DNA of 35,713 bases from positions 1 through 35,713 of the IMG/VR virus record IMGVR_UViG_3300035562_000049, one strand, 5' to 3'. This document shows, one piece after another, positions 3,173 to 35,630 of this stretch (position 1 is the stretch's first letter; every line of letters begins with the position of its first letter). A program made the translations under genes and the position numbers. A model generated the notes under the pieces. The model did no database searches and had not been told where the DNA came from. It saw only the letters and a program-made list of their open reading frames with translations. The stretch comes from a virus (lineage: Duplodnaviria > Caudoviricetes).

Positions 3173-3215
3173 AAAAAAAACCCCGCCATCATGGCGGGGG
3201 AAGACAGGGATGGTG
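3173..3215. repeat. Prophage att core, fieF-side junction
   Basis: 43 bp AAAAAAAACCCCGCCATCATGGCGGGGGAAGACAGGGATGGTG, identical to 35588-35630. Confidence 0.95.
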
Positions 3216-3330: not shown

Positions 3331-3963
3331 TTACTTCCAGGCACAGGCTTTTTGAAGAGGTTTTAACGCCTCAGATAAACCAGTTAAATCAAACGTCACA
3401 TTCACAGGGCTTTCGTTGTACGGCGTAATTTGAGCGTACATTCCATTCGCCTGAGTCAAGGCTTTGACGAACTCGATCACATTCCCACGATAGAAAACAG
3501 CTTTCGTATCACTGGAAATGTTCCAAGCTTTCGTTTTTGCCTTTTGCTTGTCCAGACGGTATAGCATCTGCGTTTCATTCAGGCCAAGATATGTATCCCA
3601 ATTGATGTACAACTCCGTTTTCTTCTCCCTGCAAGTAATGTACAACTCAGGAGTAACTGACTCACCAAACTGGGAACGGAAAGACTCATTAGCAGAAAGA
3701 CTAACGAAAACATTCTCTGAATCGTCTACCGGTGAAGACTGTGTTGATACTTGCCATTTTCCAACACCTGCCGCAGGTTTAGCATCTTCGACGACTTTTG
3801 GCGGTAAAGCTCTATCATAGCAAGCCAAACGATCTTCACCCTTTGCTTCTGACTGACATTTTAGTAAAGCATCTTTATCGAAGTCAGCCTTAGCCTCTGT
3901 CGCTGCATACGCTGTAGACACAGCCGTAAAACAGAGCGCCATAGCAATTATTATCTTGTTCAT
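3331..3963 (-). CDS. Exported protein resembling T6SS-associated TagO/VasI family (moron)
   Basis: Start reassigned to MNKIIIAMALC (signal peptide, AAAGG upstream). C-x9-RLACYD motif and C-terminal 'LKPLQKACAW' recall VasI/TagO-like proteins; family call from memory. Confidence 0.6.
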   Translation of the reverse strand: MNKIIIAMALCFTAVSTAYAATEAKADFDKDALLKCQSEAKGEDRLACYDRALPPKVVEDAKPAAGVGKWQVSTQSSPVDDSENVFVSLSANESFRSQFGESVTPELYITCREKKTELYINWDTYLGLNETQMLYRLDKQKAKTKAWNISSDTKAVFYRGNVIEFVKALTQANGMYAQITPYNESPVNVTFDLTGLSEALKPLQKACAWK

Positions 3964-3974
3964 GTACACACCTT

Positions 3975-4307
3975 TCAGGCTTTTGGGCGGGTCAAAAAAA
4001 CAAACATCCCGATAATGATATCGCCAATAACCCATATAGTTCCCAGCATCATCATTCCCAACCCCGTGCCAAGTGCAGCGCCGGCACGTTCAGCATCTGA
4101 GGCCGCGCTATTGATCACATCACTACTGCCACCGGCTCCGGCAAAGATGCAATAAATCATAAAAACGTTGAACAGGATAAATACCCATTTCACAACTTTG
4201 CCAAAAAACGAGCGTTTCGGCTTCTTTACCTGATGCCCACAAGACGGGCATTTAAACGCTGAATCACTAATTTCTTTACTGCATTCCGGGCAGTTTACTA
4301 ATGCCAT
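3975..4307 (-). CDS. Zinc-ribbon domain inner-membrane protein (moron)
   Basis: CPEC...CPSCG ribbon followed by two hydrophobic helices; start taken at MALVNC after GGAGAGTAGGA. Confidence 0.8.
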   Translation of the reverse strand: MALVNCPECSKEISDSAFKCPSCGHQVKKPKRSFFGKVVKWVFILFNVFMIYCIFAGAGGSSDVINSAASDAERAGAALGTGLGMMMLGTIWVIGDIIIGMFVFLTRPKA

Positions 4308-4375
4308 ATTCCTACTCTCCATAGATATGGTTACATAACCGCTATAAAGCCTATCAGTTGATTTTGTTTGGATAA

Positions 4376-11593: not shown

Positions 11594-11680
11594 ACACGAC
11601 CATTTGCGGCAGTGTTGGCCAATTTGCATCGAGCACCGTCATTTTTGACACTGCTGCAGCCCGATCATTTTAGACAGTGC
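11594..11680 (+). repeat. Palindrome-array element, copy 1 (three 22-bp units)
   Basis: Units at 11594-11615, 11633-11654 and 11659-11680; aligns with the reverse complement of 26706-26791. Confidence 0.9.
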
Positions 11681-15841: not shown

Positions 15842-15861
15842 TTGTCAGAGGTTGGTAACAA
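15842..15861. promoter_or_regulatory. Ogr-binding site of the V-operon promoter
   Basis: TTGT-cagaggttggta-ACAA matches TGT-N12-ACA, upstream of V. Confidence 0.8.
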
Positions 15862-15880: not shown

Positions 15881-15944
15881 GCACTGCCACGTATGGCAGT
15901 AGTGGCCATACGTATCGATCACGGTCACTTTTAACCGTGCTGCA
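15881..15944 (+). repeat. Palindrome-array element, copy 2 (two 22-bp units plus linkers)
   Basis: Units at 15881-15902 and 15919-15940, linker TGGCCAtacgtATCGA and trailing TGCA as in the other copies. Confidence 0.85.
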
Positions 15945-22117: not shown

Positions 22118-23836
22118 ATGAAACAGACTTCCCACGATGAACCACGGATTGCCGCTAAGGTCATGTACTGGCAGGCATACAGCATCACGCAGATCGCAAA
22201 ATCGATCGGCGTGAGTACCAACACCCTGTATTCCTGGCGGCGTCGTGATAAGTGGGATGAATCCACGGCACTGGAGCGCGTACAGGATCGAATGCAGGTG
22301 CGGCTATTGCGCCTGACGGAAAAGCCAGACCTGACGCCGCATGACTTCAAAACCATTGACCTGCTAACCCGTCAACTGGTGCGCATGGAACGCGAAGAAC
22401 GCCGAGGCGAAGAGAAAGGCCGCGAGAAGAAGCAGAAAAACCACTTTGCGGAAGAGCAGATCGCGCAGCTTCGCACCCTGGTGCTGGATTCGCTCTACGA
22501 GCATCAAAAACGCTGGTACAAGCAGCGCGAACGCCGCAACCGTTTCATCCTCAAATCGCGCCAGATTGGTGCTACCTGGTACTTTGCCCGCGAGGCATTG
22601 TTACGGGCCCTGGAAACCGGCAACAACCAGATATTTTTATCCGCCAGCCGTGCCCAGGCGTTCCAGTTTAAAAAGTTCATCCAGTTGCTGGCGGCACAGG
22701 TTGGCGTTGAGCTGAAAGGCGGCGACGCCATCACCCTGAGCAACGGCGCAACGTTCTACTTTCTCGGCACCTCAGCAGCAACGGCACAGAGTTACACCGG
22801 GGATCTGTATCTGGATGAGGCATTCTGGATCAACAATTTCCTTGAGCTGCGTAAAGTCGCCGCAGGCATGGCAACCCATGAAGGGCTGCGCCGTACCTAC
22901 TTTTCCACGTCATCCACAGAGGAGCATGAAGCCTATAGTTTCTGGACTGGCGACCTGTTCAACAAGGCAAGACCCAGAGCCGAACGGGTAGAAATAGACG
23001 TCAGCCACAAGGCGCTGAAAAATGGCAAGCTGTGCGGAGATGGGATCTGGCGGCAGATTGTCACCATTGAAGACGCGATAAAACTCGGCTTTGACCGGGT
23101 GAAGATCGAAACCATCAAGGGGGAAAACTCCCCAGAGGATTACGACAACCTGTACCGCTGCCGCTTCGTTACCGTGGGTGAGCGCGCCTTTAACTACAAC
23201 GCCATGATCGGCTGCTGCGTCGACGGCTTCAATGATGATGTATGGCCCGACTGGAACCCATTCGCCCCCAAACCGATAGGCGATCGCGGGGTGTGGATTG
23301 GCTACGATCCCAACGGGGGAAGCGGTAACGGTGACTCTGCCGGGTTGGTCGTGATAGTCCCGCCAGTGGTACCGGGCGGCAAGTTCCGCATCATCGAACG
23401 TGTCCAGCTTCGTGGTATGGAATTTGAGGAGCAGGCCGAGGTCATTGAGGGGCTGACAGAGCGTTACAACGTCCAGCATATCGCGATCGACGGCACTGGC
23501 GGCTTTGGTGATGCGGTTTGGCAGTTGGTCGTAAAATTCTTCCCGCTGGCGGTGAAATACCAGTATTCCGTCCAGCTCAAGCGCGCCATGGTACTGAAAG
23601 CGCTCATGCTGATCCGTGCCGGTCGTCTTGAACTGGATGCGGGAATGATGGATCTCATCCAGTCATTTATGACCGTGCGTAAGGTGCAAAAAGGCAACGT
23701 AATGACCTATGTTTCCGATCGCAAGCGCGGCAGTAATCACGGCGATCTCGCCTGGGCATCAATGACCGCGTTATATAACGAGCCGATCGGCAGCGAAAGC
23801 GGCGGCAATAATGACAGTTTTGTAGAGGAGTTTTAA
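22118..23836 (+). CDS. P: Terminase ATPase subunit gpP
   Basis: LKSRQIGATWYFA, YLDEAFW, WIGYDP, HGDLAWA. Confidence 0.96.
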   Translation: MKQTSHDEPRIAAKVMYWQAYSITQIAKSIGVSTNTLYSWRRRDKWDESTALERVQDRMQVRLLRLTEKPDLTPHDFKTIDLLTRQLVRMEREERRGEEKGREKKQKNHFAEEQIAQLRTLVLDSLYEHQKRWYKQRERRNRFILKSRQIGATWYFAREALLRALETGNNQIFLSASRAQAFQFKKFIQLLAAQVGVELKGGDAITLSNGATFYFLGTSAATAQSYTGDLYLDEAFWINNFLELRKVAAGMATHEGLRRTYFSTSSTEEHEAYSFWTGDLFNKARPRAERVEIDVSHKALKNGKLCGDGIWRQIVTIEDAIKLGFDRVKIETIKGENSPEDYDNLYRCRFVTVGERAFNYNAMIGCCVDGFNDDVWPDWNPFAPKPIGDRGVWIGYDPNGGSGNGDSAGLVVIVPPVVPGGKFRIIERVQLRGMEFEEQAEVIEGLTERYNVQHIAIDGTGGFGDAVWQLVVKFFPLAVKYQYSVQLKRAMVLKALMLIRAGRLELDAGMMDLIQSFMTVRKVQKGNVMTYVSDRKRGSNHGDLAWASMTALYNEPIGSESGGNNDSFVEEF

Positions 23837-25288: not shown

Positions 25289-25672
25289 TTAGCGGGAAGC
25301 ATGGGAAAGCTGGCGAAGAACAGCAGAAATATCTGCGGTACTGCTGGCTCCAGTGGCAGCGGAAACCGTTAATTCTTCCAGTTCGTTACCTTCGTCACGG
25401 ATCTGGATACCGTTGCGGTTTAAAAACGCCATCGCCACAAAAAAAGCGGTTCGTTTATTCCCGTCATTGAAGATATGCCCGCGAGCAATGGCAATAAGAT
25501 ACATCGCCGCAAGCTCGTGAATATCCTCAACACCTTCATAGTAAAGCTGGTTCTGAACGCGATAGATGATTGCCTCAGCCCGACCCGGCTCCGGCATACC
25601 TGGAACCCCCGGCAGAGCGGCGAGCAAGCGATCGTGAAACGCTATCACCTCCTGAGCGCTGATCCATTTCAT
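25289..25672 (-). CDS. doc: Doc (death-on-curing) family toxin
   Basis: Fic-variant motif HIFNDGNKRTA; overlaps the upstream antitoxin stop. Confidence 0.92.
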   Translation of the reverse strand: MKWISAQEVIAFHDRLLAALPGVPGMPEPGRAEAIIYRVQNQLYYEGVEDIHELAAMYLIAIARGHIFNDGNKRTAFFVAMAFLNRNGIQIRDEGNELEELTVSAATGASSTADISAVLRQLSHASR

Positions 25673-25890
25673 CTGTCAGCTAATGCCTCAATGGTGCGCC
25701 CATGACGTCCCATGATCTCGGCAAACTCTGCATCAAGCTTTGCCTCTTGCCATGCATTGAAATCATCACGGCTGATGAGCACGGCGGCAGAGCCATCACG
25801 GCGGGTGATTTCTACTGGTTCGCCAGCCGTCGCAGCTTCCATTACCTCGGCAATATTTTGTCGGGCCTGAGATGTAGTGTAAGTTCGCAT
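25669..25890 (-). CDS. phd: Phd/YefM family antitoxin
   Basis: 73 aa MRTYTTSQARQN...GEPVEITRR...LDAEFAEIM; GGAGG upstream. Confidence 0.92.
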   Translation of the reverse strand: MRTYTTSQARQNIAEVMEAATAGEPVEITRRDGSAAVLISRDDFNAWQEAKLDAEFAEIMGRHGRTIEALADR

Positions 25891-25903
25891 ATAGCCTCCT
25901 TTA

Positions 25904-25936
25904 ATGTACACCTTAAATGTACATCACAAGCGTACA
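25904..25936. promoter_or_regulatory. phd-doc operator palindromes
   Basis: ATGTACAC, ATGTACAT and GCGTACAA with GTAC cores at 25906, 25919 and 25932 (13-bp period); similar to P1 phd operator GTGTACAC. Confidence 0.75.
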
Positions 25937-25952
25937 ACAAACAACGATAACG

Positions 25953-26681
25953 CTATATCTCAGCATCAACTGTATTAAGCGCTGCCATAATTGCCAGGCG
26001 TTCAGCAGGCGGCAACGCCGCGTACTTAGCCCGCCAGCGCTCAACTTTTCGCTTAATCCGGCTGCGATCGTTGTAATCTTTGCCCGCAAAGGCGTGAGAA
26101 TATGCCCGCCCTTCACCGTAGTTCATCCAGATTTTCTCTGTTCTCACGCCGCCACGCGTCATGGCCTGAAATTCCATACTACGCCAGCCCGTTAACGTCT
26201 CGTCATAAAGCGGCGATGGGTACCCAGACAAGATCACGCTGACGTTTTCCGGCAACCCCATCAGGCAGGCTAACAGACGCTCATGATCGGCAACGGTATA
26301 CTCATGTCGATAACGGGCGCGACTGGTACGCGTCTCCGGCATATAGGGCGGATCACAATAGACCAACACCCGCCCCAGCTTGTTAAAGCCGGTCACGCCA
26401 TCCGACGCGCCGGATGATTTCAGGCTTTCCAGAAAATAGACTGCATCACCGTGAAAAAAATCAAGGCGCGGGGGTTTGATGCCCCGGTCTTTCCATCGCT
26501 GCAACGTCTGTATGCGCGCCGTTTCATCCAAATCCGCGCCATAGTTCCGCAACGCTGGCGGCTTATGGAACATCACCGCCCCGCTGCCCAGGTGGGTTTC
26601 AATGTAAGTATCATGCGGCGGCATTTCAGCAATTATCTTTTGATAAACCCCGCTACCGCCCTTACTTCCTAAATAACTCAT
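25953..26681 (-). CDS. Atypical short Dam-like (D12 class) amino-methyltransferase
   Basis: YLGSK, motif I variant YIETHLGSG, catalytic YCDPPY, LSGY; little room for a target-recognition domain; basic C-terminal extension. Confidence 0.8.
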   Translation of the reverse strand: MSYLGSKGGSGVYQKIIAEMPPHDTYIETHLGSGAVMFHKPPALRNYGADLDETARIQTLQRWKDRGIKPPRLDFFHGDAVYFLESLKSSGASDGVTGFNKLGRVLVYCDPPYMPETRTSRARYRHEYTVADHERLLACLMGLPENVSVILSGYPSPLYDETLTGWRSMEFQAMTRGGVRTEKIWMNYGEGRAYSHAFAGKDYNDRSRIKRKVERWRAKYAALPPAERLAIMAALNTVDAEI

Positions 26682-26705
26682 CCGTAAAACCTCGCGTTAC
26701 AGCTG

Positions 26706-26832
26706 GCACCACCATAAATGATCGGGCTGCAGCACTGTTAAAAATGACCGTGCTCGATGCGCATGGCCAACACTGTTAAAAACGATGGTGTTTGCCGGTA
26801 ATCCGGTACCACACTGCCATTTATGACTGCGT
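26706..26832 (-). repeat. Palindrome-array element, copy 3 (four 22-bp units)
   Basis: Units at 26706-26727, 26732-26753, 26770-26791 and 26811-26832; inverted relative to copies 1 and 2. Confidence 0.9.
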
Positions 26833-29412
26833 TTGTTGACGACGATGTAACGCTTCCATACGCGCTAACAGCAATGCGCTGCGGTCTTCTTCCTTTGATG
26901 CCATGCGAAGCAGCACCCCCTCTTTCGTCCCTCGATAACGTCCGTCCCTCGTTTCAATGACCTGGCCCATTGACAACCGACGCAGCCCGGCCCGGCTGAT
27001 ATCAAGTCCAATTGAGCGGGCATGATCGGCAAGCCTTGCGACCTGCTCACCAATTTCAGGCGATAGCGCCCGCTCCCCCTGAGTTGGCGGACGTTTTTTC
27101 ACCGGGGTTTCGCGATGCAATGAGTTATCTGGAGGGAGATCGCGCAGACGGTGCAGAAGTTGCCGACGCTGATGTCGGGTTAACGTCTCAAAATCAGCGA
27201 TTTTTCCCAACTCCTCCACAGGAGGATTATTGGTTACATTCCGCTCAGGCGGACAGTTATTGCCACGAGTCCAAGGGACGGCAAAGCCGCCCTGACGGTC
27301 AAGGTCAACACCCTGGCGCACGGCTACGCCGCCCGCTGATTCGGTTTTTCTTACCCGCTGCCAATTTTCAGCGTGTGTGCAAACACGCGATTGCTCACCC
27401 AATAGCGGTGACCAAACGCCATAAATCTGCATACCGATCTCACCGTAGTCATTCGGCTTGTCGGCTGCGTTATAGGCCGTGCGAACTACATGATCACGGC
27501 GCGGGGAAAGAACGCCGCCTTGCTTCAAGATGTAAGTGGCAATGCACCCCGCATCAGCAGCAGACAGCACATCATCCATGGCTTTATCCGTCAGCCGTGG
27601 CGATTTTTTACCGGTAATCCCCTTGCGGGCCATTTGCCCAGCCAGTAGACGTAACTCACGGTAAGTCTGCCGGGAAGGAATGCCGAAAAACTGGAACTGG
27701 CGCACACGATGCAATGACGCCCAGGCGATCGCATGTTCCACGGTGTCGGCCATGCTTTTACCGCTCTCGTGATCAAGCGGCAATTCACCGGTTTTCGGGT
27801 CTGGCTTGCGGAGCGGTGCGCCGTCAAGGTTCTTGCCAATATAGGCCGCGATGTAACTTGTTGGCGTACCTTTATCCCTGGTGATCAATTCAGCCTTGAA
27901 GCGTGGCGTAATGTCGTTGCCGAGTTCAGCCCTATCTTCTCGAATGGCAAACTCGCGCAAAATATCGGTCACATCCTCCCGTTCATCCGGGTGGGTAAAA
28001 ATCATCATATGCCAGTGAACCGTACCATCGTGGTGAGGCTCGGCTACGCGGATGCCATACCACCGCAACCCCTTGCGGTTCAGCTTTTTGCGCACACTGG
28101 AAAACATGTTGACCAGATAATCGCTGCTGTCACGCACAGTGCGGGCAGTCCATTTAGGGTTTGGCTTGCCGCTTTTCAATGTGGCGTGATACTTCGATGG
28201 GCAAGTGATGGTGCACCACACGGCACTGTCTTCGCGATACTCGGCTACATTCTCCATCCCTTTCATGGTTGCCATCATTTCGAAGCGCCGATGCTGCGGG
28301 TTACTGTTACCTGCGTAATAGACGTCCTCCATGTCCAGCGTCACACCTTCGTCATTTACCAACTCGTGGTTTTTCAAAAACTCACGCGTCAGGCGGCGCT
28401 GCTCTCGCTTATGTATCAAGGCATCGTGGCTGATAAAGGCCGAAGCATTGATGTTAACCAGGCAGGCAGCGCGTAAAAGTTCTTCGCGCCACTCGCAACG
28501 GTAACGCCATAACCGCCGCTGCCACCAATTGGCGCAGCACAGTCGGGCTAATGCACCGGGCAATAGGTGATAAGGGATCTGACCGCGCTTGCGTCGCTGA
28601 ACATCAAGCGCTGACCATTGCGGGGGAATGATGTTTATCCGAAGCGCTTCGCGAGCAACCACCTGATAAACACGCAATGCCGCTTCCGGCGTCATACCAT
28701 TGGCAAAATGTGTCTCACACTGCTGATTAAAGAGCGAATCCATGAAGCCCGCCGCCAGTGTGGCAAGCAATTTTACCTCCCGCTTGGTCAACTCAGGCAG
28801 GCGTAGCAGTTCGTCCAGGCGTTCACGCCCCGCAATATAACGATAAGCAGCGGTGAGATTACGGGCATTAACCTGCTCTAAACGGGGCAGCACACGCTTG
28901 ACGGTTTTTTGCAAGAATGTGCTGGCCGGTTTACTGCTTTTGCCGTCAAGCTCAGCGGCTACCTGTAATTTACGAAAATGATTAAGACGGATCAGCAGAG
29001 GCTGGCGAAGGTATTGCGGCAAGGTATGCAGGGCGGAAACCAATTCAGCATCAGGATCACCGTCAATTGCACGTTTGGCATCTTTGTTTCTGGCAATCTG
29101 CCCTTCACGCTGTAATTCGCGTTCTTCGGCTTCTGCAATGAGGTAATCACGGCGAGTCAGACGCGCGCGTTCCTTATCGGAAAGCGAGCCACGGACAAGC
29201 GAAATTTCTCGCAGCTCTGCGGCCTTGCGCTCTTCAATGCCAAGCTGGATCCATTGCGCCAACGGTGATAAAGGCGGGATGATTTCAATATCGGCAGGAT
29301 TTATCGCCGCGTGAGACATATTCCACGAGTAAACCCCGGTAAACGGCTCATCGTTTCCGGGGTATGGGGCAGGTTCAGAGGGTGTATAGCGTCCCCGCGT
29401 TGTTTCAGTCAT
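26821..29412 (-). CDS. A: Rolling-circle replication endonuclease gpA
   Basis: TITCPSKYH, HUH motif EPHHDGTVHWH, YIAAYIGKN, RQFQFFG; ATGA overlap with the upstream gene supports the start. Confidence 0.95.
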   Translation of the reverse strand: MTETTRGRYTPSEPAPYPGNDEPFTGVYSWNMSHAAINPADIEIIPPLSPLAQWIQLGIEERKAAELREISLVRGSLSDKERARLTRRDYLIAEAEERELQREGQIARNKDAKRAIDGDPDAELVSALHTLPQYLRQPLLIRLNHFRKLQVAAELDGKSSKPASTFLQKTVKRVLPRLEQVNARNLTAAYRYIAGRERLDELLRLPELTKREVKLLATLAAGFMDSLFNQQCETHFANGMTPEAALRVYQVVAREALRINIIPPQWSALDVQRRKRGQIPYHLLPGALARLCCANWWQRRLWRYRCEWREELLRAACLVNINASAFISHDALIHKREQRRLTREFLKNHELVNDEGVTLDMEDVYYAGNSNPQHRRFEMMATMKGMENVAEYREDSAVWCTITCPSKYHATLKSGKPNPKWTARTVRDSSDYLVNMFSSVRKKLNRKGLRWYGIRVAEPHHDGTVHWHMMIFTHPDEREDVTDILREFAIREDRAELGNDITPRFKAELITRDKGTPTSYIAAYIGKNLDGAPLRKPDPKTGELPLDHESGKSMADTVEHAIAWASLHRVRQFQFFGIPSRQTYRELRLLAGQMARKGITGKKSPRLTDKAMDDVLSAADAGCIATYILKQGGVLSPRRDHVVRTAYNAADKPNDYGEIGMQIYGVWSPLLGEQSRVCTHAENWQRVRKTESAGGVAVRQGVDLDRQGGFAVPWTRGNNCPPERNVTNNPPVEELGKIADFETLTRHQRRQLLHRLRDLPPDNSLHRETPVKKRPPTQGERALSPEIGEQVARLADHARSIGLDISRAGLRRLSMGQVIETRDGRYRGTKEGVLLRMASKEEDRSALLLARMEALHRRQQTQS
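27253..27277 (-). other. Putative replication origin (gpA nick region) inside A
   Basis: Minus strand CCCTTGGACTCGTGGCAATAACTGT resembles P2 ori CCTCGGAGTCCTGTCAATAACTGT at the equivalent position. Confidence 0.7.
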
Positions 29413-30356
29413 ACCTGTGCCCGGCAGCACTGAATAATTTCACACATGGCTTTTGGGGGTACTGCATTGCCCGCCATGTGGACGGTTAGCTGGTGTGACG
29501 ATGGCCTGATGTAATCATCAGGAAATGACATTGCCCGCATATTTTCATCTGCGCTCAGCATTCTCATTCTGTTGCCATCGACAATAGCCCACCGATCACG
29601 CGTTGTGATGGTGCCAATAGGCCGAGAAAGAGACCGCCCGGACTTAGAATTACCGTAATAGGATATTAGGAACCGGCTACCAAATTTCGCGCGACCATTT
29701 CTTACCCGCTCAAGGGTAGCGACAGCTCTCCCTGCTTTCTCAATGGGTTGCCAATTCCCGATGGTCAGATCGATAAACGAATCGGCAGCAAGATGCGGCA
29801 ATTTGGGTAACGTCAGGTGCAGCGGATTTTTGCTGCGAGTACAGACAATGAACATGCGCACACGGTTTTGCGGCACACCCAGATCGGCACAATCCACAAT
29901 GTGTGGCGCGAGTGAATAACCTAGTGCGTGCATTGCCGCTTCCCAAGCGGGATAAAGCGCCCATTGCAGAAACTCGGGCACATTTTCCACAATGATTATT
30001 TCTGTCTTATGGAATTCGGCAGCAGAGATCACCGCCCAGGCCGTCGACCTGCTGGCATCATGCTGTGGATTGCCTGCCTTTTTACCGCGTGCCCTGCTAT
30101 GCCCCTGACAGCAGGGTGACGCCATCATGAGATCATGCGCAGGAACCTGTGACCAGTCCGCCTGGTGCAAATCCTGACAAACATGGATTGCGTCAGGATG
30201 ATTCCTGGCATGAGTATCAACAGCGGCCTGCCAATGATTGCCAGCCCAGACAACAGTTGCCCCCGCCATGGTTGCGCCAGTCGAGGAACCACCCAGACCA
30301 GAAAACAAATCGATTACTCTCAGTGGGTTCTGGGTTCCTTTGTTGAATTCGCTCAC
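29409..30356 (-). CDS. DNA cytosine-C5 methyltransferase
   Basis: DLFSGLGG, SPCCQGHS, ENV, QNRVR, GNAVPP motifs. Confidence 0.93.
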   Translation of the reverse strand: MSEFNKGTQNPLRVIDLFSGLGGSSTGATMAGATVVWAGNHWQAAVDTHARNHPDAIHVCQDLHQADWSQVPAHDLMMASPCCQGHSRARGKKAGNPQHDASRSTAWAVISAAEFHKTEIIIVENVPEFLQWALYPAWEAAMHALGYSLAPHIVDCADLGVPQNRVRMFIVCTRSKNPLHLTLPKLPHLAADSFIDLTIGNWQPIEKAGRAVATLERVRNGRAKFGSRFLISYYGNSKSGRSLSRPIGTITTRDRWAIVDGNRMRMLSADENMRAMSFPDDYIRPSSHQLTVHMAGNAVPPKAMCEIIQCCRAQV

Positions 30357-30580
30357 TTTTTGCTCTCCACGTTGTAAGTCTCATGGGTCAGCAATAACCA
30401 GACCTTGCCTTTGTTCTTACTCAGCAAGCGCCAGCGGCAACCGATACGTATCACCAGGTAAAAATTGGGCTTTATACGGGAATAATTTTTAAAACCGCGA
30501 GAGAACAAATTCAGCGCTGCCGTTGCACGACTACAAACGTGCAGCGGGGCTTTGCTTTTGACTTCAAGGCGAACAGGCAT
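30353..30580 (-). CDS. Small basic protein, possibly ParE/RelE-like fold
   Basis: Coupled to both neighbours by overlapping start/stop codons; RWRLLS...THETYN recalls phage ParE-like proteins (from memory). Confidence 0.5.
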   Translation of the reverse strand: MPVRLEVKSKAPLHVCSRATAALNLFSRGFKNYSRIKPNFYLVIRIGCRWRLLSKNKGKVWLLLTHETYNVESKK

Positions 30581-31521
30581 CAGAACCCCCCTTGATCATC
30601 AAAAACACCCGCAGCAACCATCGCGCCATAAGTCGAACTACCACAGCACGGCCCACAGTCTGGACAGCATCCGCCGCCAGCTCGCCCGCACCCTTCGCAT
30701 ACCTTGAGGACGCCGATCACTTCTTGGGCCTTCTGGCGGTTGCTGGTATCGGTACTGACTGAGCGTTGCACGTCAATTTCATGCAGGTGGAAATGGCGGT
30801 AGATCTCGCGGGTGGTTTCGGTGTCGCTGTTGGAAATGACAACCGGCGCGCCATATTTACGATTCACTTCCAGCAGTTCCGCGGCTAACTGGCGGTGATG
30901 GCTCTCCGTGAATGGCTCGGTGTGGTATTGGGTAAAATTGGCGGTATCGCTGGCAGGCAGGTACGGCGGATCGCAGTAAATGGCTTCATCCGCGCCAACC
31001 ATCACCTTGAGGGTGTTTTGAAACGAGCTGCACAGGAAAATAGCTTTGGTGTCGTTGGCCTTCTCCGCAAACTGGCGGATCTCCGCTTCGGGGAAGTAAG
31101 GCCCGGTTTTATGCTGACCAAACGGCACGTTGTAACCGCCGCCCTGGTTATAGCGCACCACACCGTTGTAGCCGTGGCGGTTGAGGTACAGGAACAGCGC
31201 AGCCCGATTCACATCAAGTAGCCCTTTCGCGCTGTTGAATATCTTGCGGTTGCGGAAATATTCCTCTTTTGAATTGCCCACCGTGAACAGCTTGCGCGCC
31301 ATATCGATCAGCAGGTCAGGATCGCTTTTCACTTCGCGATACAGGCGGATCAAATCCGGGTTGATATCAGCCAGCACATAACGGCGGTAATCGGTATTGA
31401 GAAATACCGACGCACCGCCAACAAACGGCTCAACAAGGCAATCGGCTTTTGGCAGGTGCGGCAGCAGTGCAGGTATAACCCGGCTTTTGCCACCGGGCCA
31501 TTTGAGAAGGGAGCGGATCAT
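30580..31521 (-). CDS. dam: DNA adenine methylase (Dam family) with Cys-rich C-terminal tail
   Basis: LKWPGGK, EPFVGGASV, YLNRHGYNGVVRYN..G.YNVPFG, YCDPPY. Confidence 0.93.
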   Translation of the reverse strand: MIRSLLKWPGGKSRVIPALLPHLPKADCLVEPFVGGASVFLNTDYRRYVLADINPDLIRLYREVKSDPDLLIDMARKLFTVGNSKEEYFRNRKIFNSAKGLLDVNRAALFLYLNRHGYNGVVRYNQGGGYNVPFGQHKTGPYFPEAEIRQFAEKANDTKAIFLCSSFQNTLKVMVGADEAIYCDPPYLPASDTANFTQYHTEPFTESHHRQLAAELLEVNRKYGAPVVISNSDTETTREIYRHFHLHEIDVQRSVSTDTSNRQKAQEVIGVLKVCEGCGRAGGGCCPDCGPCCGSSTYGAMVAAGVFDDQGGF

Positions 31522-35587: not shown

Positions 35588-35630
35588 AAAAAAAACCCCG
35601 CCATCATGGCGGGGGAAGACAGGGATGGTG
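35588..35630. repeat. Prophage att core, cpxP-side junction
   Basis: 43-bp identity with 3173-3215. Confidence 0.95.

Follow-up and report, generated by a model that had tools for sequence, protein, structure and literature searches.

Upstream of a short, Dam-like methyltransferase gene in a P2-like prophage stands an array of 22-bp palindromes, and the same array recurs at two other loci of the prophage. This raises the question of which protein the palindromes serve and what that protein does there. We examined the 35,713 nucleotides of IMG/VR record IMGVR_UViG_3300035562_000049 (here called the window), which hold a whole P2-like prophage with an inverted FI-U tail block and the gene order of Salmonella phage SEN4. 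An earlier note, made from the letters of the window, had offered three roles for a protein bound at these sites (autoregulation, loading for methylation, or an epigenetic switch on late genes) and considered the system to be undescribed.

Palindromic units and arrays of the prophage

All nine palindromic units were found where the earlier note had placed them (Table 1), and arrays 2 and 3, on the plus strand, equal array 1 on the minus strand. Among inverted repeats in the window, these array matches rank first and second in length (74 nt at 76% and 56 nt at 86%). The spacing does recur as claimed, with exact start-to-start distances of 39/26, 38, and 26/38/41 bp in arrays 2, 3, and 1, respectively. 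Array 1 had been assigned to the gap between gene A and the methyltransferase gene; it lies there, except that the unit at 26811-26832 covers the last 12 nt of the gene A open reading frame.

The half-site had been given as RCACNRYYA. While the palindromes are real, this loose pattern is weak (18 matches at 3 mismatches versus 9.9 by chance), and the family consensus RCACnGTCA-nWWn-TGACnGTGY replaces it. A matrix built without the window units found eight sites of at least 10 bits, namely, seven of the nine units and a tenth, missed before, inside gene P. Dinucleotide-shuffled versions of the window gave a mean of 1.4 matches (maximum of 5), with a pair of matches within 60 bp in 3 of 100 shuffles. 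Relatives carry a unit at the same place within gene P, and many have a further unit inside gene A that is degenerate in the window (27355); the DNA palindrome inside A is kept across relatives despite differing half-site bases. The arrays of relatives are also found at G|U, S|V, and K|Rz and before Q, and single units occur inside A, P, and M. Sites in the window are unevenly spread, with none in about 20 kb and none outside 11.6-26.8 kb, which rules out evenly spaced loading sites.

Table 1. Positions of the arrays, of the single unit, and of neighboring features in the window
Feature	Position	Strand	Remarks
Array 1	26706..26832	-	Four units (26811, 26770, 26732, 26706); last ends 25 bp before start codon; flanks GGTACC, CCGG, TGGCCA, TCGA, TGCA, CAGCTG
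Array 2	11594..11680	+	Three units (11594, 11633, 11659) between convergent ends of genes U and G; flanks TGGCCA, TCGA, TGCA, CATG
Array 3	15881..15940	+	Two units (15881, 15919) between gene S stop and Ogr-type site of V promoter; flanks CCGG, TGGCCA, TCGA, TGCA
Tenth unit, single	23657..23678	.	Inside terminase gene P; GATC flank in register
TGT-N12-ACA Ogr-type activator site	15843..15860	.	Upstream of gene V, 20 bp from array 3
Short methyltransferase gene (Upf31-family, 242 aa)	25953-26681	-	Dam-like (D12) fold, no target recognition domain (TRD), basic helical C-terminal domain
Replication gene A	26821-29430	-	3' end overlaps first unit of array 1
C5 methyltransferase gene	29409-30356		One of three methyltransferase genes in prophage
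Dam-like methyltransferase gene	30580-31521		One of three methyltransferase genes in prophage

The upstream array accompanies the gene

Among the closest viral loci, 78 of 80 had two or more units within 250 bp upstream of the gene. Distinct upstream regions carried at least one unit in 188 of 218 cases and at least two in 169, and they yielded 515 matches versus 3.4 in shuffles, with a matrix trained on these same regions. To avoid this bias, we picked phages by their portal protein, and 72 of 80 such loci had the whole A-Q interval. In this sample, whose members are related so that the counts are not independent, the upstream array was present in 23 of 26 phages with the gene and in none of the 46 without it. 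Late arrays were present in 16 of 26 and 15 of 46, respectively. Thus, independence of the arrays from this methyltransferase family, which would have spoken against the proposal, was seen for the late-gene arrays and not for the upstream array. Neither gene nor array was found in any of 72 members of the P2 clade.

Late arrays without the gene did not appear to have decayed, with a mean score of 20.5 versus 20.9. In a set of 35 motif-bearing records chosen from outside one earlier record set, the gene was absent from 18, and 16 of these were at least 90% complete or full records. Phage phiT5282H is an example. Arrays without the gene fit frequent gene replacement at the A-Q hot spot; they could also be used in trans or by a second binder. 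In phiT5282H itself (L182 15769-19052), the G|U array is kept, and an AAA ATPase and S8 peptidase pair occupies the place of the methyltransferase. The same hot spot of our prophage holds a Phd/Doc toxin-antitoxin pair (window 25289-25911) directly downstream of the short methyltransferase gene.

A Dam-like fold without a target recognition domain

The structure of the 242-residue protein was predicted with confidence (pLDDT of 92.8), and its residues 1-190 matched DpnM (Z 16.7, rmsd 3.3, 165 residues aligned across DpnM 15-284) and T4Dam/Dam (Z 15.8). The protein matched PF02086 at 26 bits against a cutoff of 22, and motifs X, I, and IV (DPPY) of the class I fold are present. Its score of 36.6 bits with TIGR00571 (NCBIfam dam) was far below the cutoff of 114.85, and its similarity to the phage's own Dam was marginal (38% over 37 amino acids). 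The TRD of Dam presumably lies between motifs II and III. Between strands 45-50 and 73-77 of the phage protein, we found one short helix (54-65) and no TRD. Two C-terminal helices (203-241) carry a conserved RIKRK-x-x-RW motif. Among 222 homologues encoded at the loci, DPPY was present in 221 and E..LG.G in 219. Model and homologue alignment thus upheld the earlier description of a DPPY motif, a variant motif I, little room for a TRD, and a basic C-terminal extension. A homodimer prediction scored 0.32, below the mark of 0.42.

The protein therefore shares with Dam, DpnM, and T4Dam (D12 class, PF02086) the catalytic fold (Z 15.8-16.7), DPPY, and motifs X and I, but about 20 residues replace the TRD and a helical C-terminal domain is added. 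M.SsoII and M.Ecl18kI are autoregulated methyltransferases that bind a long inverted repeat upstream of their own gene, an arrangement resembling the one described here. Both are C5 enzymes and possess an HTH at the N terminus, a TRD, and a partner endonuclease, none of which the phage protein has, and the phage system differs further in having arrays across the replicon.

The plasmid homologue Upf31 and its repeats

A search of plasmids returned full-length homologues annotated upf31.0 in IncP-1beta plasmids. The 242-residue protein is 46% identical to pB3 Upf31 over 240 amino acids (E=4e-69), including the C-terminal domain, and residues Y180, F185, and W198 of Upf31 align to F198, Y203, and W216 of the phage protein. 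With the phage matrix, the repeats of pB3 were recovered at -146, -102, and -56 upstream of upf31 and in two further clusters. Units and linkers at all three places (the upstream array and the two clusters) in the 38-kb part of pB3 that was examined are the same as in the phage. The likeness thus extends from the protein, with its conserved C-terminal aromatic residues, to the 22-bp unit, the linkers, the array directly upstream of the gene, and further clusters in the replicon, some within coding sequence.

Thorsted et al. in 1998 reportedly described four groups of IncP-1beta repeats without an explanation. The repeats and the gene have been described in IncP-1beta plasmids (PMC11997246), so the system cannot be called undescribed. 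According to the available text of that report (Elg et al. 2025, PMC11997246), Upf31 represses its 68-bp upstream region, which holds one repeat, about 50-fold, and repression requires the C-terminal domain and Y180, F185, and W198. Upf31 also raises the Kor regulon and, by prediction, binds KorB; in its plasmid, expression of the regulon gene klcA, which encodes an antirestriction protein, goes up about 5.7-fold. The authors propose that Upf31 binds to the four repeat groups, as cited from Thorsted 1998 (PMC11997246). They did not detect methylation by Upf31, and a dam- strain with the whole plasmid showed no GATC methylation of genomic DNA, a further difference from Dam (PMC11997246). The cloning primer of the SMRT test begins 15 nt before the start codon, i.e., by pB3 coordinates, downstream of the operator (PMC11997246). 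The SMRT construct therefore lacked the operator, and the published test leaves room for operator-tethered methylation.

Our prophage differs in that no KorB-type gene was seen, with no KorB/ParB family member among the 34 window open reading frames scanned (a subset of all), and the KorB contact of Upf31 is itself a prediction. The main text of PMC11997246 covers plasmids and no phage, and in the text available the repeats are left unexplained and a fixed +4 register (see below) is not noted. Our literature search did not find the Upf31 module in P2-like phages, other plasmids, or IS66 elements, nor the fixed geometry, although older IncP-1beta work (Thorsted 1998, Akhtar thesis) may already link repeats and restriction sites. 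The parts available of PMC3091744, PMC6312765, PMC4914505, PMC7728920, and bioRxiv 2025.08.13.669769 do not describe the phage-borne element. We conclude that it is a phage-borne variant of a described but unexplained plasmid system and that it is real and conserved.

Breadth of the family and putative operators embedded in promoters

The family is large, with 576 representatives at an E value of 1e-30 or better. For the locus search, we used a 15-sequence alignment since a 98-sequence one was too diverse. The motif accompanies the gene into Vibrio, Shewanella, Acinetobacter, Methylobacter, Caulobacter, and others, and on a 68-kb Acinetobacter contig the sites are again in separate clusters. 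At 28 distant loci, as in pB3, the promoter of the gene has a TTGACN -35 box and a -10 box with a unit fitted exactly into the space between them. Judged from these sequences, this is the layout of an autorepressed operator. The phage array differs from that of Upf31 in this respect, as a promoter scan at array 1 gave nothing above chance and no overlapping sigma-70 consensus -35/-10. Nonetheless, the promoter-embedded units and the matching repression by Upf31 make autoregulation, one of the three proposed roles, likely. Taken together, the arrays are very probably operators for the phage's own Upf31-family protein, a putative assignment drawn from the comparison of loci.

The module is common to P2-like phages, several plasmid types, and IS66 elements, and its core job therefore cannot depend on KorB. 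Several of the 28 distant loci are IS66-family elements of about 2.25 kb. In such elements (L227, L229, and L233, about -150 to +2130 around the gene; also L237), a Upf31-family gene is followed by the transposase gene, and its promoter contains a single operator, often with GATC at offset 5. Terminal inverted repeats of 15 bp were seen in L227, L229, and L233. At four other loci (L217 6570-8669, L214, L236, and L232), the neighbors of the module include an open reading frame of the Zot family (probably from a filamentous phage), a plasmid gene for RepA, a TraG-like gene, and a P2-like gene A from Shewanella with a PapB-family regulator behind it.

Restriction-type motifs in a fixed register at the ends of the probable operators

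The ends of the operators abut GGTACC, YGGCCR, CTGCAG, TCGA, CAGCTG, CCGG, CCWGG, or GATC, each at its own offset: TGCA and TCGA at 1; GGCC, GTAC, and AGCT at 2; CCWGG and GATC at 3 (GATC also at 1); and CCGG at 4. A palindromic 4-mer was present at offsets 1-2 in 70% of array flanks versus 15% at offsets 7-8. The fixed register of these restriction-type linkers, which we regard as the key feature, had escaped the earlier note. As a result of the offsets, A or C occupies position +4 in most distinct array flanks; in three identity bins, the share is 87% (n=280), 88% (n=302), and 92% (n=112). We take this base to be the one modified by the cognate methylases of PstI, TaqI, HaeIII/BalI/EaeI, KpnI, AluI/PvuII, Dcm/EcoRII, Dam, Sau3AI, and MspI/Cfr10I. 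Using a list of 32 motifs and only those loci that have at least two units, we found the presumed methylase target base at +4 in 79, 72, and 75% of flanks in the three bins and at any other top-strand offset in at most 29%. Of the 20 flanks in the window, 18 show A or C at +4 and 17 have an in-register motif. The flanks are related by descent, and the real sample is about nine motif classes; we roughly estimate the chance of matching the cognate base, given A or C at +4, at about 0.02.

There are exceptions. GATC at offset 2 puts T at +4 in 13 of 280 flanks, and in 20 of 26 promoter-embedded operators the +4 base is T or G. On a quick tree, which gives pB3 Upf31 a long branch, 49 of 66 representatives across the phage and plasmid branches had in-register flanks of at least two types, compared with none of the 10 in the branch to which the IS66-borne copies belong.

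Some of these sites are rare elsewhere in the 32-kb prophage. All three CTGCAG sites are at arrays, with none outside and 11 expected; TGGCCA occurs three times at arrays and once outside, with 11 expected; and CAGCTG occurs once at arrays and twice outside, with 17 expected. Because P2, which lacks the system, is also depleted of PstI and TGGCCA sites, it is their retention at arrays that is the special feature. GATC is not depleted in the prophage (window 3200-35600; 189 versus 186 expected), and neither is GGTACC (10 outside arrays versus 12 expected), while GATC is depleted in P2 (25 versus 128), as is GGTACC in SEN4 and SI7. The Dam-like and C5 methylases that the phage itself encodes may account for this.

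Cleavage positions presumably differ from motif to motif and the modified base is constant, which argues that selection acts on the methyl position. The idea that cargo was naturally cloned at the linkers was rejected, as in the 39 loci inspected no cargo had the same site at both of its ends. The upstream array of SEN4 contains an insert of 293 bp with a small open reading frame, which splits the GGTACC...CCGG linker (L082 30949-31321).

Possible reading or writing of the base at position +4

Our preferred explanation, which we place just short of probable, is that the protein is a TRD-less, Dam-fold autorepressor that reads host methylation at +4. It would bind each 22-bp palindrome as a dimer and repress its own gene. 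The operator-bound protein would flip the base at +4, its pocket would read whether the host has methylated that base, and methylation there would change operator affinity. The methyltransferase pocket probably does engage the +4 base, as the simplest reason for such a register would be a base-flipping pocket placed about one helical turn away from the half-site. With a panel of common restriction-modification and Dam/Dcm targets, at least one operator would respond in most hosts, and a newly arrived element would learn whether its DNA carries the marks of its new host. The output in the phage would be the level of the Upf31-family protein and the occupancy of sites in late operons.

The Dam-OxyR switch at Mu mom, the Dam-Lrp switch at pap, and Dam at IS10 are methylation-dependent switches in which, similarly, binding of a regulator depends on methylation of an adjacent site. 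Each of those reads one host methylase, whereas here eight or nine target motifs are held in register, and the reader that we propose would itself have a methylase fold. A broader possibility, which we hold somewhat more loosely, is that mobile elements use the module as a sensor of the host methylome, with the panel of restriction-modification targets showing phages and broad-host-range plasmids which methylases a new host has. If so, it would account for the clusters of restriction sites and repeats in IncP-1beta plasmids, for which an explanation has been missing since 1998. That old puzzle now yields a precise, testable prediction, namely, that the +4 base matters.

In the main rival reading, the protein is a writer tethered to the operator that would methylate A (N6) or C (N4) at +4, or spread methylation locally from loading sites; the mark would shield the retained sites or the element from restriction and feed back on repression. 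We regard this as rather unlikely, though it has real arguments on its side. DPPY and the SAM-binding residues are nearly invariant in a Dam-like fold close to DpnM, which fits an active enzyme better than a pure reader, and the intact catalytic site argues for a writer. The prevalence of A or C at +4, the survival at arrays of hexamer sites purged elsewhere, and the missing operators in the published SMRT construct (PMC11997246) point the same way. However, any A or C would suffice for a writer, which would have no need of conserved palindromic restriction contexts, and sites under its protection would be expected to drift. A reader would need the host target contexts, and this is why we favor it. 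At adenine sites, moreover, host m6A would equal the writer's own mark, so that the contexts would carry information only if the protein reads. The dam- strain with the whole plasmid showed no GATC methylation (PMC11997246), and the 20 kb of the window without sites also sits poorly with a writer.

It is less likely still that the protein is a plain autorepressor derived from a methyltransferase fold, with linkers kept as cleavage or insertion hot spots or by descent or copying of an ancestral cassette. Autorepression is the only function shown, in the plasmid homologue (PMC11997246), and IncP-1beta regions of clustered restriction sites have been described as possible integration hot spots (PMC3590792, in the text available). 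The phage arrays at A-Q, S|V, and G|U also match accessory sites of P2, and IS66-borne operators lack registered flanks. Against this, the constant feature of the motifs is presumably the modified base and not the cleavage position, same-site brackets around cargo are missing from the 39 loci, and the register is maintained from Enterobacterales to Vibrio, Shewanella, Acinetobacter, Caulobacter, and IncP-1beta.

A true reader would mean that mobile elements can sense which restriction-modification systems their host contains; a true writer would be a small methylase aimed by a long operator and not by a TRD. In both cases, many genes that carry the annotation "DNA adenine methylase" would be regulators.

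Other binders and hairpins

We also considered that another phage or host protein (e.g., LexA, C, Cox, or Ogr) binds the arrays and that the methyltransferase is a mere neighbor. This is very unlikely. The late arrays of phages without the gene and the CTG-N10-CAG-like spacing of the unit would suit such a binder, but the motif accompanies the gene into plasmids and IS66 elements otherwise unrelated to the phage, and P2-clade phages lack both. A LexA SOS box (CTG-N10-CAG) was rejected since both triplets occur in only 1 of 10 window units and position 5 holds 0.12 bits. With TGT-N12-ACA taken as the Ogr-type activator consensus, the window has two more such sites (5895 and 22054), neither with an array nearby. 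An array thus lies near only one of three Ogr-type late promoters, which leaves the suggested switch on late genes weakly supported. P2 itself has no array, just isolated matches of at most 14.5 bits. The Z region of P2, which we take to be flanked by an inverted repeat, was a candidate identity for the arrays and was rejected, as the repeats flanking fun(Z) differ in sequence.

That the units work as RNA or single-stranded DNA hairpins can be set aside with little hesitation, palindromic and located at gene ends as they are: many positions do not pair, units also lie within coding genes, mismatches over 318 units showed no favoring of G-U on one strand (311 G-T versus 335 A-C, p=0.37), as the earlier note had observed, and RNA folding of the arrays was no better than that of shuffles (z=+0.70), with no Rfam match at the arrays at the gathering score. 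The absence of strand bias and the folding result indicate double-stranded protein-binding sites, and together with the association of the upstream array with the gene, they sustain the proposal that the sites belong to this protein.

The only Rfam match in the window was the sRNA Hrs1 at 35588. Identical 43-nt repeats at window 3173-3215 and 35588-35630 are likely attL and attR, and a third copy (81%) lies at 1133-1175. Beyond ogr, window 3331-4322 holds two accessory genes, for a VasI-like protein and a zinc-ribbon protein.
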